Below, piece by piece: positions 54,101 through 64,000 of a stretch of 64,000 bases of DNA. The stretch comes from Owenia fusiformis (taxonomy: Eukaryota): positions 17,546,001 through 17,610,000 of the forward strand of contig CAIIXF020000001.1 in NCBI GenBank assembly GCA_903813345.2, written 5' to 3'. The notes beneath the pieces are model-generated. The model worked only from the letters and a program-made list of their open reading frames with translations, made no database searches and had not been told where the DNA came from. Position 1 is the first letter of the stretch; each line of letters opens with the position of its first letter. The position numbers were made by a program, and so were the translations under genes.

Positions 54101-54585
54101 ATTCAATTATACTATTACTGACTTGGAGTTAAAGCACCAGTTAAAATGAGTTTTTAGTAAAAACCTCACACAAGCTCAAAAAGCTGTAATAAGACAGTGG
54201 TTCATTTACAACTTCGACTAATAGAAATTAAGCTTGATCCAAAATACTTTTTATATTACAAAACACTTTAACGATTCCTTTGTTGCATATGAGCTGAAAA
54301 GTCATTCTTCGGAAGTTTATGATCGTTGGATGTCATCAAGTGATAGTATTAGAGAGATTGTTTGTACTGAACATTAAATTCCTGTTCCCTTTTCAGACGG
54401 TTCAGTTTGCGTCAGACGTAGGGGGAACAGTAGGACTTTATGTAGGAGCATCATTACTGACTGCATTTGAATTCGGAGAATTCTTTTTAGACTTATTAGT
54501 TTATTTCATAAGGAAACCATTCCATAAAAACAAAGTGAGCGAAGTTAAAATGGAGCAGACGAAATCGAACGTCCAGTTTAGCTGA
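48116..54585 (+). CDS. DEG/ENaC (amiloride-sensitive sodium channel family) subunit, 9 exons, about 534 aa
   Basis: Exons 48116-48308, 48517-48771, 48978-49146, 50813-50916, 51385-51548, 51780-51893, 52942-53086, 53706-53977, 54397-54585; total 1605 nt in frame. Motifs: TSAHG, TM1, FPAVTICNVN, YGNCFTFN, GLKLVL, GVRVLVH, Cys-rich thumb, SDVGGTVGLYVGASLLT (GAS filter). Confidence 0.93.
50055..50721. mobile_element. PIF/Harbinger-like MITE in DEG/ENaC intron 3
   Basis: taacaccccagtcacattt...aaatgtgactggggtgtta TIRs; GC-rich subterminal ctgcgg/ctacg repeats. Confidence 0.75.
52311..52846. mobile_element. Tc1/mariner-type non-autonomous element
   Basis: TA|CAGGGTGAGCCAAAAAAGGTAACC ... GGTTACCTTTTTGGATATCACGCTG|TA. 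Confidence 0.7.
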
Positions 54586-55315: not shown

Positions 55316-57140
55316 AACAGCTTATTTCTAATTTCAAATTGTCATATCTGATATCAACTGTTTCAACCAATCAGCTCTCTAAGAATTGGTCATGTGACTT
55401 GCAAAACTTGGAGTTGTAACAATCTTATATTAAAACGAAGTATGCCAATATGCATGTTATTGTATCTAGTATGAAAAATAATGTTTTGCTTTGTAAAAAA
55501 ATCTTCAAAAAAACAAAGAATATTATTTAATAAAATAAAGAAAATTCAATTTATAAAACTTTAAAATCAATTTCTCAAATAAGTACAATTATTTCTTAAT
55601 TTTGGAATCTCAGGACACCCTTCAAAAAGAATTTATTGCCTTTGAAACTAAGGCAAAAGTACAATGCCTTGAAACCAATGATGCCAATACGGTCCCCCAC
55701 ATATTTCCCTCGGTATAAACCCTGTAGCCTAAACCTCCCACCACATTACAATGTAGGCCCTAAGGGCCGGTCCGCTGGTCATTATCAGGTTATTTTTGAT
55801 ACAGACCAGTTGAATCTTTCACTGGGTATAGGAGAATAACATTGCAACTGGTCCGTAATTCCATTTTGACCAGCATAGGTTTCAGATCCTTAGGGCCTAA
55901 GACATAACCAATTTTTATTACATGCACATGGAAGAAATTTGAAAATAGAAAAATAATTTCTAATTAATGTTAGATTAATGAAAGTGATGAAACCTCGATT
56001 TAGGTAATAATATTTTGTTCATTGGGATGCAGCTATCATTATCCATTCATTTTCTGTTGTTTGCTACTCTGTGGAGTACAATTGGGAATTCTCTCAGCAA
56101 TTGTAGAAGTGGAGACTAAGAGTGGCTCTTTGTAAAGAAATTGAACCAATTTGTTACTTTTCCAAAGTAAAATGTAGATGATCTAAAAACAATGATCCCA
56201 AAAAATGCAAAAGAAAGGACAAATCTGAAAAACATACTAGTAAATAACTAAAAAGATCCCAGATGTTCAGTGAAAATTCCAAAGTAAATCATAGATGAAG
56301 AGAAAATAAAATAAGTGTTTTAAGGGACTATACTAACATAAAGATAACTCCTTATTGATATAGTGTATGGTCAGTAAAAGTTAAAGCTAGTTTAAATAGA
56401 TTTAGCTTTTTTTCCACAAACTATAAAACATCATTTTGAAAGAGATTTCAATAGTATACAGACAGTGATTGCCTTTGAGCGATGTAGTGCAAAATATGAC
56501 AGTTACTATTTGTTTTGATTACTATATCTAGTATATAACCTATTATAGTTCTATTTGAAGAAACAAATAAGTAGTCTTTCATTTTCAACATTTAATGATG
56601 ACTGCTTCGTATATATGCATTTCTATTGCATTTGGCCATTCAAACCCCTATAAGACCTGGTAGCAAGGAAGATAAAGGGTACTTTTGACTGCTCACATGA
56701 TCTAATTAACTGGTCATTTGTACTTTTCATCTTCCCTGGTAGCAAGGATTTAGGTTTTCGAGGAAATTAGTAATTCTATTTCATATCATGTGGCCATGAA
56801 TATCAATAATCCAATGAGCATCCATAATACAAAGAGTAATTGAGGGCATATAATTTGAATATGCATGGGATTACACATACTGTATCATTTTATTTTTTGA
56901 TCTACTTGTAATAGTTCTAAAACTAAAACATGAAAGGCCAGGCATGCAAACTGTCTTGGTTTTGTGTTACAAAACATTATTTCATTCTAGATACAATAAC
57001 ATGCATATTGGCATACTTCGTTTTAATATAAGATTGTTATAACTCCAAGTTTTGCAAGTCACATGACCAATTCTTAGAGAGTTGATTGGTTGAAACAGTT
57101 GATATCAGATATGACAATTTGAAATTAGAAATAAGCTGTT
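55316..57140. mobile_element. 1.8-kb non-autonomous element with near-perfect TIRs of about 153 bp
   Basis: 55316-55468 is the reverse complement of about 56987-57140 with few mismatches; no ORF inside. Confidence 0.85.
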
Positions 57141-57827: not shown

Positions 57828-58611
57828 ATATATTGGGTGTCCCAATAAAAACGTCACACTTTTTGACAAGAATTTTCTCAGCAATTACTACCTCAAATTT
57901 ATTGAAAATTTCGATAAAGTAGCCCTAGCAAGTTGTACAAATATGATAGAAATCGGTCACACATTATGTAGGATTGACTAATTCAAAAATACATATCAAA
58001 AAATCCAATATTAGAGCTTGCACAATGACACTTTCATAGCATTTGTGCTTTCCAGTATCAGGTGATAAAATGGTCATTCTGTTGTAGTCTTAAAACATCT
58101 TGTCTGTGGGTCGTTTATTATTTGTTTCATTGTTCTCTGTTTTTTGAAATACATTCTGTCCAAAATTTCAGTATTGAGGGATAAACAATGCCTCTAAGTG
58201 ATAGGCGATAAGGCTATACCATTGAAAACTGTGTTTTAAGGTGAAAGGTTTGTGTGGAAGATCAATCGTAAAAGAATTAAGGGCTGGAGTTAGAGTCATG
58301 TTACTGTAAACTTATGAGCATTCGACATTCATAAAAAGACAGTATAATTATGGAATGGGAGGCGATATCAATGGAAAAATACACAAAAGCTGTTTTTAAA
58401 AAACAGCTTTTTTCAGACTGAAACAAGTGGCAATTCCATTGATTTTTTACATGCATTTTTGAATTTGTTAATTCTCACATGATATGTAAAATATTTCTAT
58501 TATACTTCTACACCTTGCTTATAATATCCTAAGGCTACTTTATAGAGCCAGTAATTGCTGAGAAAATTCTTGTCAAAAAGTGAGACGTTTTTATTGGGAC
58601 ACCCGATATAT
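57828..58611. mobile_element. Tc1/mariner-type non-autonomous element
   Basis: gggtgtcccaataaaaacgtcacactttttgacaagaattttctcagcaattact is inverted at about 58550-58605; TA-rich flanks. Confidence 0.8.
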
Positions 58612-59003
58612 AAATTACCTCTTGTAGTCCATATCTTTAAAATAGTAATAGATTGATCATCTAGCACTCTTGAAAACGAAGTTAATCTGATTTAATTAAA
58701 GGTTGGTCGATATTTTTCTGAACCCACTTAGAGCACTCTGTATGAGGAAATAAACAGTTAATTAAACAGAAGAATTAATTTATTAGTATAAATTTCATAT
58801 TTTACATCGTATTTTGCATAATTACATTTGTATAAATAACTAAAAGTTAACACTTCAATTAAGTTGTTGTTATAAAATGTGAGGTATTCAAAGCAGGCTT
58901 CTCATTTCAGATCAGGACCCGTATCAAAACACTGCGTGTCATTTACCTTATTTGGACTTAACAGTTTTTGTAATAATATACATATATATCATTTATATAC
59001 ATT

Positions 59004-61367
59004 TCATTCTTTTAAAAGAGCAAACAAACATGAGCATAACACGATTAACAGTGAAATGTTTGGAAAAACTACATTTCCGGTTCCTGTAGGGTCAGTTGTT
59101 TCTGGTTCAGGGCTTTGAGTAGGTAGAGTGTATACGGGCAGATCTGTAGGACAAGCCTCGTCCCACTGAATGTCCATTCCCTCATTCTGTTTCTCAAGCC
59201 ACGTTATCAGTGGCTGGAAATATTCGATTATAGCTCCAGCGTCCATTGTTGTGTTCCCAGTTACTTTCTCCATGGCAACTGCCCATGGCTTAGACGAGCC
59301 TAAACTCAACATATCACTGAAACATGAAGAAATGATTTGAATTATAAATGCCAATCATACCAACATTCACAAATAGTCATATAAGTACTTTATGTGACAA
59401 GTTGGCCTCTGTAACATCAACGATGGCATGGTTCTGTTTTAATCAGTTTGTTATAGTTTAACATCAAGTCTTCATGATGGAACAGTAACCCCATATTTTT
59501 CTCGTCAAATGTAGTCGTCGGGACAATGGACTTGATTCTTAAGTTTAATTACATTGTTAATTTCTGATTTTAATGAATATGTTCGAGAAATTAATTAACA
59601 AATATTTCTACTTATATATTTCTGTTAGTATTGTTAGAAATAGTGAGTAACTTCTATATCTAGTACAAAAATATTAATAAACATCTAGGACTGTTTAAGG
59701 CCCATCATGTTGCACTCTAAAAATAATATAAAACTCTGGAAATAATATAAGACAAAGGAAAGAATTCTAAAGACAATACACAGAATTTCTGCTAGTATAA
59801 GATTACACACAGCACCAAAAGTTGACATGATGCAGGAAACCCAAAGGCATTTTGCTTGTAGACTAGTAACTGCAAGATAAGCAATTGCTTCTGGTGTAAC
59901 CCCTAAATCAACAGTCGCATGTGCATTGTTAGCATCAGTGCATTCACATCCACATTGCAAACCATTTACATCCAGTTACATTACATTCAGTAAGAAAGGG
60001 GATACCAGACATGTGCCACTCATTAAACAAAATAATGGAAAGTACAACAAATATGACAACGCTGGCATACACAATCCTAATATACACGAAACATGCATGA
60101 CATCAACGCACCCTAATTTTGCACCCGCTAGTTTAGATTTGTATATATCACACTTGTACAATGGACCCATATGGCCTGCATCCTTGCATAGAGCTTGGTG
60201 AAATTGAAACTGGATAATAAAGCTTACAAAATACCTGGAATAAAAAGGAGTGAGAGAATAAGTGAGAAAGAAAGTAAGGTGAAGCAATAAATACTGAAAT
60301 AGGCATGTTGTTGTTAGTATTTGTCGTGTCGACCAAGGACTTGATGGTAGGTATAGCATGTTCTCATATGGCTGATGATACAAATATGATTTGTGAAGAT
60401 CCTAGGTTTTTCCATTGAGGTATATTTGAGGTAGTTCCAAAACATGCAAGGACCTCTATGATAGAGTACCATGATACATGCTAGACATTCCAACATTCCT
60501 ATTGTCGAAGGTAAGCAGTTTTTGATCTTGTGTTACTTTGGTTTGTTATCCATAGAAAGAAGAAAGGTATCCCAGACCATCCCTAACATCTGTGCAGCTA
60601 ACAGACTAAGTAAGTACGGTCAACGAGAACGCTGAAAAGCAGGTTATACCGCAGCTTATTTAGCTAGATCGACTGATTTGTCAAGGATACAGTTGAATAG
60701 AAAACAAACTGCAAAAATCCAGTTATCACCGCCACTTGAGCCTACATGAGAAGGAGAATAGACTTCATTACATCATCTAAATTATTTTGTTAAAAGTGAA
60801 GACTTGGGACAGTACAACATATATGTTGGAATCAGGTGCACCGTTTGGAAGATGGAAAGGCCAAAGCAAATGCTTGGAACAGGTTCCCAAGACTCTCTAA
60901 TTGTCTTACCCCAGCTTAGTTCCGGCGTCATTTGAATTATAAATGTCACATTTGTAGAGTGGTCCAGTTTGATTGGCTGCCTCACATAAAGCTTGGTGGA
61001 ATTGAAACTGGGTGACTTCGCTTATAAAGTACCTAAGACAGCAGTGGTAAATTAATTATAAAATGCAAAATATAACTAAATGGCTGTTGGTCTATTGAGG
61101 AATCCGTGTCACCCGGGAGAAACTTCAGCCTTGGGATCAGCATTTATTAACCGCCGGGTAGGCAGGAACAGGAACACTGAAAGAAATTCAAGCAAAGCAC
61201 ACAATGCAGTATGTGCATATTCCCATTTCATATGTAATATTTACCTCAGCTTGTTGCCGGCCACGTGTGAATTATAAATGTCACATTTGTAGAGTGGTCC
61301 AGTTTGATTAGCTGCCTCACACAAAGCTTGGTGGAATTGGAACTGTATGACATAGCTTACAAAGTAC
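59004..61367 (-). CDS. ACE: 3' part of an angiotensin-converting-enzyme-like peptidase (family M2); upstream exons are not in the window
   Basis: Terminal exon 59316-59004 encodes [11 protein letters not shown]...[21 protein letters not shown], a Ser/Thr/Pro stalk and a hydrophobic tail. Three 123-nt exons of the type RYF.S...QFQFHQALC...GPLYKCDIY lie at 60234-60112, 61032-60910 and 61367-61245. Confidence 0.9.
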
Positions 61368-61809
61368 CTAAGATAACGTGTTATTCATCAAATATGCGTC
61401 AGATACAATATTTCAACTAATTACTAAATTCTAGTTCTAACATAAAAAGTAAATCTATACATAATAAATACCATATATGATATGATATCACAACTTCGAT
61501 CACAATTCAGGCCGATGAAGTTAGATCTACTCATTAGCTTCTAGTTTTCATTTCAATTGTATGTCTCACCAGTCACCATACTTGATGCTCATGAATTAAT
61601 ATATAATCATTAGTGTCTAATGTTAACTTCAATTGTAGATTCACACATGACTTTGGCCTTATATGATGTGTATATATAGTTTGATCTACTAATTATTAGC
61701 TCCTACTTCAAGCTACAGAAGCACAAGTTAATATAGAAAGAACATGGGTCAGCATCAAATGATGTATAATGATCCTGATTACATCCAAATCTACGAACAT
61801 TATTATGAT

Positions 61810-63776
61810 TTTTTTTCTCAGTTTATTTATTTCAATTTCCTTGATATTGATATACAAAAGTATGCCTTTGTTAACTTAATAACATTATCGGCATAGTAAA
61901 TATTAAAAATATAATACAGGAAATACAAAATACAAAAACCACGTAGTATGTTCAGTCTATATGTATGCTTGCTCCCCATCCCACCCATAAGGTTCCCAAA
62001 GGAATTTAGAATGTTTCACTGGCTCTTTAAAACTGTGATTGCTGTTGAGACATAGTGAGCCACGATTTCAATAATTTTGCTATTCATCACATCACTAAGG
62101 TTGGTATCCCCATACAAAAGTGTATCTGATTTCTTAGAGATTGTTAAATTTCTGAAATCTGGCAGACATTCCAGTTCGTCGAGTCCTGCAAGAAGCAATT
62201 CCCTTTCATTTATGAGCAGTGGACATTTGATTAGAAAATGAGAAGTGGTTTGATGAGCTGCACCACATGGACATTTGGGATCATTAATTGTGGTAAAATT
62301 GTGGGCATGTAAATGGCTATTAAGCAAGAGTCCAGCTCTAAGTCTGTTGAAAGTAATTTCAGTTTGTCTTGGCATAGTGTACTCCATTTTGGATGTGGGT
62401 AAGGATACATGGCTCCTTTGCTTCCTGACTGATCTTTTAAATCTTGAGATTGGCTGCCCAACTCGGATAGTTGGTGGAAGCCCATTCCAAGCTGAGATGG
62501 CACTAAAGATTGTAGATTTTTTGGTTGAGACACTAGTATGTAATGGAATCTGATAATCTGGCTGATCTCTCAGCCTTCTAGTGTGAACAATTTCATAAGT
62601 TCTCACCACATCACAGATGAAGGGAGGTAAAGCATTAAAGCGTGCCTTAAAAATAAAATTTTTTAAGTGCTCATCTCTTCTCGATGCCAGCTTTTTCCAA
62701 TTTAGAGAAGAAAGTACCTTATCAGTATTTGACCCATGAATAGCACCTGAAACTAGGCAGGCTGCTCTATAGTGCAGACTTTCGAGAGCTTGGAGCTTAA
62801 GAGCTGATGCTTTATTGTAAATTATGTCACAGTAATCTAAGTGGGGTATGAAGTAAGCATTGTAAATTGTTTCAAGATGTTTGCTTGATAACTTTTTACT
62901 AAGAGCCTTCAATGGCCTCATTAAAATTGTCAATTTGTTAATCAGTTGGTCAATGTGGGCATTAAAGTTTAAGTGTTTATCTAACACTATTCCTAAGTGC
63001 TTATGGGTATCTGTCATTGGTATTTGCTAATTTCCTAAAGTTAATGATGGTTGAGCTGCTAATTGGGTTCTTTGGCCATAAAAGGTTAGATCAGCACTTT
63101 TTTGGGCTTTAAATTGCATGCGCCAAGTGGTTGCCCATTGGTTAAGATTGTTCAGATCTTGTTGAAGGGGTTGATTTAAATTCAATAGCATGTCAGAGTT
63201 TCTGTCATAGGCATCATAAAGTGACGTATCATCAGCAAAAAATAAAAGCTTTGGAGTTTAAGTTGTCAGGTAAATCGTTAATATATATTAAAAAAAGTAG
63301 GGGACCCAAAACAGAACCTTGGGGAACACCGGCATTTATAATGTATTGGGGTTTATTGGGATTATTGACCGGATTGTTGTTGTTACCAATTAATTCAGGA
63401 TCAGAGGACCAATCGGAAAGGCAGTTATTAATACGCACTTTAACCCTTCTGTCTTTAAGATAGGAGGTCATTAATAGAATAATTTCATTGCTACATCCGT
63501 ATGCTTTAAGTTTTTTTATTAAGAGTTTGTGGGGTACCAAATCAAATGCAGACGTCAGGTCTAAAAATATTGAACGGACATTTTTCTGTTGATCAACATT
63601 AGTTTGTATATCATGAACAATGTTGATCAGTTGATTCACCGTATTGTGTTGTGGTAAAAAACCACTTTGAAATTTATACAAGAGATTATTATCCAGTAAA
63701 TGAAGAAGGAGTCTGTTGTGGATTATTTTTTCTAATACTTTGGATAGTGAGCATAGTAATGTAACTGGTCTATATG
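61810..63776 (-). mobile_element. 5'-truncated, inactivated LINE (CR1/L2-group-like RT) in an ACE intron, sense to the gene
   Basis: Motifs YRPVTLLCSLSKVLEKII, QSGF, FLDLTSAFDLV, GVPQGSVLGPLLFLIYIND. There is a frameshift in an A-run just before FADD (about 63237-63243) and an in-frame TAG at about 63027. C-terminal CPCG..QTTSHFLIKC, AATAAA plus A-tail at about 61810-61830, and a possible TSD tatgat. Confidence 0.92.
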
Positions 63777-64000
63777 ATCATGTCTGATACTCATAAAGTT
63801 AAACTTAAAATCTTAATCATAATAGGTGTAACCTAGATGAATATGATCTACAGTGTATACAGAGAGTGCTATCCCTTTTTATAACATCACTAATTTTATC
63901 ATAACTATCATAACGGTTATTTGATTACCTGATGTAAGGCGTGTTTCCAGGTATATGGTATTTGGCACCTGGATCAAAATCGTCTTCTGTTCTTTGTACA

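Follow-up and report, generated by a model that had tools for sequence, protein, structure and literature searches.

Three tandem variants of the active-site exon in an angiotensin-converting enzyme gene of Owenia fusiformis: a candidate case of mutually exclusive splicing

How many active sites can be drawn from one peptidase gene? The question is raised by a stretch of DNA from Owenia fusiformis (assembly GCA_903813345.2, contig CAIIXF020000001.1, positions 17,546,001-17,610,000), here called the window, 64,000 nucleotides long, whose own positions are used throughout. Its minus strand carries the 3′ part of a gene for an angiotensin-converting enzyme (ACE, peptidase M2), and in this gene three adjacent exons, named C, B and A in the order in which they are transcribed, encode versions of the same active-site segment. 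It is proposed here, with a probability of roughly 0.8, that the three are mutually exclusive. One exon would have been duplicated in tandem twice in the Owenia ACE gene, and the spliceosome would join the upstream exon to exactly one of C, B and A, exon A being presumably attached to it as directly as the other two, and then to the terminal exon, so that three enzymes of 650 amino acids would arise from one gene. The Phe, Glu or Tyr placed deep in the S2′ pocket would, together with neighbouring residues, shift the preference for the P2′ residue of the substrate, and the usage of the exons would be regulated.

A preliminary description, made from the letters of the sequence, had reported three exons of exactly 123 nucleotides (nt) in one phase, open in frame and bounded by AG and GT, and its coordinates and translations agree with those obtained here. 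All three share the same layout of one base, 40 codons and two bases, free of stops, with AG before and GT after them on the minus strand. The order on that strand is constitutive exon (end at 63929), C, B, A and a single terminal exon; that only one exon follows the triplet had been stated earlier as well, and its coding part, 59316-59004, is indeed all that lies downstream. A tblastn search of the whole window with the three exon peptides found three places (E 1e-15 to 1e-25) and no fourth copy, the remaining matches having E > 0.8, and no other ACE exon copies were found in the window by tblastn beyond the triplet, the upstream exon and the terminal exon. Nucleotide identity is 107/123 between C and B, 82/123 between B and A, and 81/123 between C and A. 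The flanking introns, of which 100 nt before and 50 nt after each exon were included, gave no alignment past the splice signals, which bears out the earlier remark that the introns have diverged and the exons (66-87% identical) have been conserved. The first split codon is AG-G (Arg) in all three cases, the upstream exon ending in TAC ATC AG at 63929, followed by gtaatc; the last becomes AG-T (Ser) with C and GG-T (Gly) with A and B, residues that agree with two deposited proteins described below. The acceptor is CAG in A and TAG in B and C, and the pyrimidine tract in front of it is longest in A. The usual donor consensus is GTRAGT; C has GTAAAT, B has GTAAGA, and A has GTGCGT, the least usual of the three. 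Clusters of mutually exclusive exons born of tandem duplication are characterized by neighbouring homologous exons that agree in length and phase and have splice sites of their own, and this is what the triplet presents.

By its predicted product, the gene is a single-domain, membrane-anchored ACE. The corresponding deposited protein, P0004 (CAH1773416.1, 650 amino acids), carries the description 'unnamed protein product [Owenia fusiformis]' and the UniRef name angiotensin-converting enzyme. It scores 911.8 bits against PF01401 (cutoff 23), with residues 22-593 on positions 2-576 of the 581 of the profile, and 1454 bits against the human ACE chains, residues 19-598 aligning with both human domains. 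The zinc motif, HEMGH at residues 367-371 and HEA with E395, is encoded upstream of the window; its ligands presumably correspond to human H383, H387 and E411, and from them we take the Owenia numbering to be that of human testis ACE minus 16. The upstream exon was recognized in a tblastn search with P0004 (100% identity over 24 amino acids at 63999-63928), and the 103 full codons of the terminal exon are 100% identical to residues 548-650 of P0004 and of a second deposited protein, P0019. In this exon the M2 domain comes to its end, to be followed by a stalk rich in Pro and Thr and by a hydrophobic C-terminal tail. The part at 59004-59130 (minus strand) reads as a Pro/Thr-rich stretch, about 17 hydrophobic residues and then only Lys-Glu at the C-terminus, a tail which looks like a glycosylphosphatidylinositol-anchor signal or a tail anchor and not like the transmembrane segment plus cytoplasmic tail of the vertebrate enzyme.

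The duplicated exon encodes the catalytic tyrosine (human Y523), the helix that lines the S2′ pocket with F527 and, behind this helix, the Cys-Cys loop. None of the three copies has lost the catalytic Tyr or either Cys, and each begins with Tyr-Phe. According to the preliminary description, the residue equivalent to F527 is Phe, Glu or Tyr in the three copies, and an NQT sequon is present in B and C; both statements hold in the translations, which have Phe in A, Glu in B and Tyr in C, and in which the sequon belongs to the Cys-Cys loop, its place being taken by GHM in A. The assignment to the pocket rests on alignment with human ACE and on what the accessible parts of two papers describe (PMC7024173, PMC11880972). 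In the alignment of P0004, Y511 of the Owenia enzyme falls on F505 of the human N-domain. F505/F527 is located on helix H27 in the deeper S2′ pocket and is Phe in both human domains, Y501/Y523 being found at the pocket entrance, as far as the accessible part of PMC7024173 goes, and F527 is among the contacts of ACE inhibitors in the corresponding part of PMC11880972. Exon B further carries Ile, Val and Thr at the equivalents of 525, 528 and 529. The amino acid differences between B and C group at two places, in the pocket helix at the equivalents of 525, 527 and 529 and farther on at those of 556-560. Any two of the predicted isoforms would differ at between 7 (B vs C) and 14 (B vs A) residues, the last split codon included, and nowhere else. 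In 241 distinct segments from 200 proteins, a set in which vertebrates are over-represented owing to the manner of collection, the F527-equivalent is Phe in 212, Tyr in 18, His in five and Glu in one, the lone Glu being that of Owenia exon B. It may be rationalized that the exchange of Phe, Glu and Tyr, together with the Val/Ile, Ile/Val and Ile/Thr changes, would alter the preference for the P2′ residue of the substrate, and that a Glu replacing the aromatic wall of S2′ would plausibly favour basic residues at P2′.

Four sequencing runs were compared with positions 58000-62000: the contig sets X1 and X5, for which the RNA status was guessed, and the raw-read RNA runs X13 and X14, of each of which about 6% was read. 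The record of X5 does not state RNA, and the set was taken as complementary DNA from its behaviour, because depth is high on exons (600-2270) and low in most intron bins (0-100) and because it contains splice joints. On the terminal exon itself the depth is 1900-2270. In X5 the terminal exon is joined to A (59315 to 60112, depth 73.9), to B (59315 to 60910, depth 235.2) and to C (59315 to 61245, depth 412.9, and 59316 to 61245, depth 883.9); thus every one of the three variants has a direct joint to the terminal exon. The joint from 59316 to 61245 fits the window letter for letter and skips a stretch that starts with CT and ends with AC on the plus strand, that is, GT to AG on the minus strand. 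The three joints from 59315, to A, B and C, each carry one other letter, a G, at 59316. At this position, where the terminal exon begins, the window has A and the X5 contigs have G (plus strand), and this polymorphism, in the third position of the split codon, is synonymous with all three exon choices. Contigs with the G allele have depths in the proportion 57:33:10 for C, B and A, contig depth being a poor measure of expression.

On the upstream side, those X5 contigs which stop at the B acceptor (61034) and at the C acceptor (61369) are followed by an identical run of 21 letters, the reverse complement of window positions 63951-63931, the end of the upstream exon; therefore B and C both have a direct joint to it. 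On the downstream side of C there are raw reads as well: two reads of X13 run over the joint between C and the terminal exon, and the X13 depth on the terminal exon (about 4) and on exon C (about 1.2) comes always from the first mate on the plus strand, which fits minus-strand RNA in a usual stranded library. Joints between C and B, B and A, or C and A are not listed in any of the four runs, where contigs cannot show absence and the depth of raw reads is very low. The check for junctions that the preliminary description had suggested thus places all three exons in front of the terminal exon; its claim of one exon per transcript is well supported for C and B, with joints on both sides, and for A on the downstream side only.

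The deposited proteins lead to a related picture. The 90% cluster of P0004 has two members, the second being P0019 (CAH1773415.1, 650 amino acids), and the two differ at seven positions, all within residues 509-547, with exon C in P0004 and exon B in P0019. Because they differ only there, the gene models of the depositors already treat C and B as alternatives. Public annotation accordingly already has the B and C isoforms, unnamed, and an A isoform was not found among the deposited proteins.

The divergence of the copies was followed by means of non-synonymous (dN) and synonymous (dS) substitution, a check that had also been suggested beforehand. Between C and B, dS is 0.40, dN 0.083 and dN/dS 0.20; A differs from B and C by a dN of 0.19-0.23, with synonymous sites saturated. 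The split of A from B and C is old, as seen from this saturation, and that of B from C is younger (dS about 0.4). Low dN beside saturated synonymous sites in the comparison of A with B and C indicates that all three copies have been under long purifying selection. The 16 nucleotide differences between C and B are concentrated at nt 8-28 and nt 101-122 of the exon, the middle 72 nt holding two differences, both synonymous. Within the triplet exon A is most like vertebrate ACE: it shares 34/40 residues with segments of the C-domain of snake ACE, more than with its neighbours C (29/40) and B (27/40). The nearest matches of exon C, at 33-34/40, are segments of an unnamed three-domain protein, of the nemertean Lineus and of the mussel Dreissena. 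One variant is listed in the 369 nt of the triplet, a synonymous one in exon A, and ten in the 313-nt coding part of the terminal exon, six synonymous and four not. The latter are L611P, V630I and S635L, which fall in 59004-59130, and E592Q at 59183, just upstream.

Several observations weigh against the proposal of three exclusive active-site exons. In the portion of X13 that was read there is no depth on B or A, and in that of X14 there is none on A, B, C or the terminal exon, with few reads elsewhere in 58000-62000. The upstream joint of exon A is not among the X5 loose ends listed, six more of which are not listed, and none of the 140 proteins matching the exon A peptide is a deposited A isoform, the best being 85% identical (snake ACEs). 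Rare in-frame co-inclusion of two variants may occur and is compatible with the contig data. An X5 contig at 60208-60459 comprises the initial 27 nt of A and, without splicing, part of the intron between B and A, with 11 differences from the window and a depth of 100.7, which is higher than the 73.9 of the contig joining A to the terminal exon; coverage stops near 60460-60545, and the reading frame of exon A stays open upstream to 60401. This contig could be a piece of retained intron, an internal start or a divergent pre-mRNA haplotype, and part of the RNA containing A may be unprocessed or have started inside the intron. Furthermore, no statistical sign of positive selection was found between B and C, given a dN/dS of 0.20 in an exon too short for site tests, and the difference between A and C may be functionally mild, since Phe and Tyr at the F527-equivalent are both common natural states (212/241 and 18/241).

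Much of this would be accounted for if only C and B were functional and A were a relic, present at low level or in unprocessed RNA without giving a meaningful isoform. The junction depth of A, the lowest of the three (73.9 vs 235.2 for B and 412.9 plus 883.9 for C), the upstream joint missing among the listed loose ends, the unspliced contig over its acceptor, the want of a deposited A isoform and a donor, GTGCGT, departing from GTRAGT all speak for it; yet A has kept an open frame, AG and GT borders, both Cys and the catalytic Tyr with its synonymous sites saturated relative to B and C, and its 34/40 identity to vertebrate ACE segments requires long purifying selection. As the only variant listed in A is synonymous, and A has the longest pyrimidine tract in front of its acceptor and a precise joint to the terminal exon, the relic is regarded as improbable. 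A stronger competitor, still held to be the less probable view, accepts that the choice of exons is real and takes it to be neutral or merely regulatory, the isoforms sharing one specificity and being kept by subfunctionalised expression or by drift. It is favoured by the wide occurrence of Phe and Tyr at the F527-equivalent in other ACEs and by the B/C ratio of dN to dS. It sits poorly with the two clusters into which the B/C differences fall, pocket helix and 556-560, on either side of the almost unchanged middle part, and with the Glu of exon B, which among the 241 segments is the only case of an aromatic residue replaced by Glu deep in S2′ and which alters the charge at a position that contacts ligands in the accessible part of PMC7024173.

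That the triplet might be an artefact of assembly, or the remains of separate paralogous genes, was named in the preliminary description as a refuting outcome; nothing observed here speaks for it, and it can practically be dismissed. The copies differ from each other by 13-34% of their nucleotides and their introns cannot be aligned, which does not suit collapsed or duplicated haplotigs. X1 has an even depth of about 9-40 over exons and introns, shows no joints and behaves as DNA; five overlapping or abutting pieces of it, with a few allelic differences, cover 59946-61413 including the introns, so that the triplet stands in tandem in DNA-like data too. A, B and C share a single terminal exon as splice partner, B and C share a single upstream exon as well, and further copies of ACE exons are missing from the window. 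Barring an error in the comparison of the runs, the colinearity of X1 and the shared splice partners in X5 refute this explanation.

What might enforce the choice of a single exon is less apparent. Known mechanisms of exclusivity comprise frame shift with decay, steric hindrance, incompatible spliceosomes and RNA pairing, and none of these fits the sequence examined. Each exon has 3 × 41 nt, so that co-inclusion stays in frame and no route by frame shift and decay is available, and the introns between the variants, 212 and 675 nt, are not short and all have GT-AG borders. A scan for inverted repeats, restricted to the 25 longest of 54 pairs, gave short AT-rich pairs only. In a screen for duplexes over 83,890 pairs of 30-nt windows, the best pair brought together a G-rich stretch at 61952-62005 and a pyrimidine-rich one at 61123-61214, one on either side of exon C, which their pairing could loop out. 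Extended, this duplex reaches -43.6 kcal/mol vs -32.4 ± 3.5 kcal/mol for shuffles of the intron between C and B, 0/200 of which attain it (a post hoc comparison); with the intron between B and A and the one between A and the terminal exon, the same G-rich stretch behaves in an ordinary manner (154/200 and 116/200 shuffles reach it). In the control for the screen as a whole, the best window energy, -27.8 kcal/mol, was reached by 2/8 shuffled sets, and competing RNA pairing was rejected as unsupported.

The coordinates of the gene features are compiled in Table 1.

Table 1. Features of the 3′ part of the Owenia ACE gene, in the order of transcription (window positions)
Feature	Positions	Strand	Remarks
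Upstream constitutive exon, 3′ end	63929-64000	-	codes P0004 residues 483-506; donor GT 63928-63927
Intron upstream of C	61368-63928	-	2,561 nt; mostly retrotransposon fragment
Exon C	61367-61245	-	123 nt; Y at F527-equivalent; NQT sequon; deepest junction contigs in X5
Intron C-B	61033-61244	-	212 nt; X5 depth low vs exons
Exon B	61032-60910	-	123 nt; E at F527-equivalent; NQT sequon
Intron B-A	60235-60909	-	675 nt; X5 contig 60208-60459 enters from exon A
Exon A	60234-60112	-	123 nt; F at F527-equivalent; without sequon; lowest X5 junction depth
Last intron	59317-60111	-	795 nt; GT 60111-60110, AG 59318-59317
Terminal exon, coding part	59004-59316	-	after ...tttcag; stop TGA 59006-59004
3′ untranslated region, probable	58761-59003	-	AATAAA 58784-58779; X5 contig 58761-58969 (depth 641.6) ends at 58761

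The 3′ untranslated region probably ends at 58761, as judged from the AATAAA signal and the end of the X5 contig. The intron upstream of C is filled for the most part by a 5′-truncated fragment of a retrotransposon without long terminal repeats (62016-63777, minus strand), which shares its orientation with the ACE gene and has open reading frames at 63777-63232 (RVT_1, PF00078, E 3.8e-25) and 63026-62016; the 336-residue open frame of the fragment gave no Pfam match. Downstream of the ACE gene, an open frame at 54298-54585 on the plus strand resembles the C-terminus of the amiloride-sensitive sodium channel family (PF00858, E 7.5e-06; positions 425-455 of the 455 of the profile). Probably a DEG/ENaC channel gene, convergent with the ACE gene, has its last exon here. 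Between the two, inverted and nearly identical pairs occur at 55363-55407 (+) and 57049-57093 (-) and at 57829-57981 (+) and 58500-58691 (-); they were noticed because the list of open reading frames and the noise of the tblastn searches contain the same, or nearly the same, strings of peptide letters, and are probably copies of dispersed repeats.

How does the Owenia gene compare with its relatives? Ten 90% clusters of invertebrate ACE-like proteins were compared, and in six species isoforms of the same length that vary in a single block were encountered (P0051/P0068/P0073/P0074, P0052/P0069/P0071, P0079/P0080, P0039/P0063, P0042/P0067 and P0028/P0057), these sets being gene predictions of NCBI. 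The block coincides with the exon of the HEXXH motif in the scallops Mizuhopecten (four isoforms, residues 358-393) and Pecten (three isoforms, 358-389), in the mussel Mytilus californianus (two isoforms, 400-433) and in the amphioxus Branchiostoma floridae x belcheri (two isoforms, 422-440) and Branchiostoma lanceolatum (two isoforms, 429-441); in the nemertean Lineus (two isoforms) it is an N-terminal block, residues 122-145, which is not known to line the active site. Equal length and one variable block, which is what mutually exclusive exons would lead one to expect, are shared by the predicted isoforms of scallops, mussel, amphioxus and nemertean and by those of Owenia. The exon that varies in Owenia varies in none of the other nine clusters, and no other annelids were among the ACE-like matches. 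The predicted isoforms of equal length suggest mutually exclusive clusters at other exons of the ACE family. One might speculate, tentatively, that the ACE peptidases of marine invertebrates have repeatedly evolved cassettes of active-site exons, and that the B form of Owenia, with a changed P2′ preference (for instance for basic C-terminal residues), would act on other neuropeptides in particular tissues or stages.

Tandem-duplicated mutually exclusive exons are of a kind described in the accessible parts of PMC9741552 and PMC7797038, and the Owenia ACE triplet would be a further instance. With human ATE1 exons 7a/7b and the vertebrate cases of 'tandem duplicated exon substitution' it has in common that the homologous exons are neighbours and agree in length and phase; it would also share the use of one exon per transcript, and isoforms that are identical except for one homologous segment. 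Unlike these examples, the Owenia cluster has three members, belongs to a peptidase M2 gene and allows co-inclusion in frame, and competition between RNA structures, as in ATE1 or Dscam, could not be demonstrated at the Owenia gene. An in-frame cluster of three exclusive exons without an obvious enforcing mechanism would be of interest by itself. In the literature searched, which for one query comprised the 15 best of 127 matches, no mutually exclusive or duplicated exon cluster was found in any ACE gene, and nothing on the ACE of Owenia; the A isoform and the reading of the exons as active-site cassettes were likewise not encountered in that literature.

In this context it should be borne in mind that ACE is among the best-studied drug targets and that its two vertebrate domains are a textbook case of divergent specificity after duplication. 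Three natural enzymes that are otherwise identical, with Phe, Glu or Tyr at the position of F527 and a few altered neighbours, would offer a ready-made test of selectivity towards substrates and inhibitors. Mammalian testis ACE, which serves as the numbering reference for Y523 and F527, is likewise a second isoform of an ACE gene; it arises from an internal promoter, not from a choice of exons, and carries the active site of the C-domain. Vertebrate somatic ACE resembles the Owenia gene in that one gene holds M2 active sites of differing preference, in Owenia putatively so, by way of an internal duplication. There, however, a whole domain was duplicated and both copies reside in one polypeptide, whereas in Owenia the copies of a 41-codon exon are alternatives. 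If the proposal holds, exon choice in Owenia would be the counterpart, at the level of splicing, of the duplication into N- and C-domains in vertebrates, and a comparable result would have been reached by duplicating only the 41-codon exon with the catalytic Tyr and the wall of S2′.

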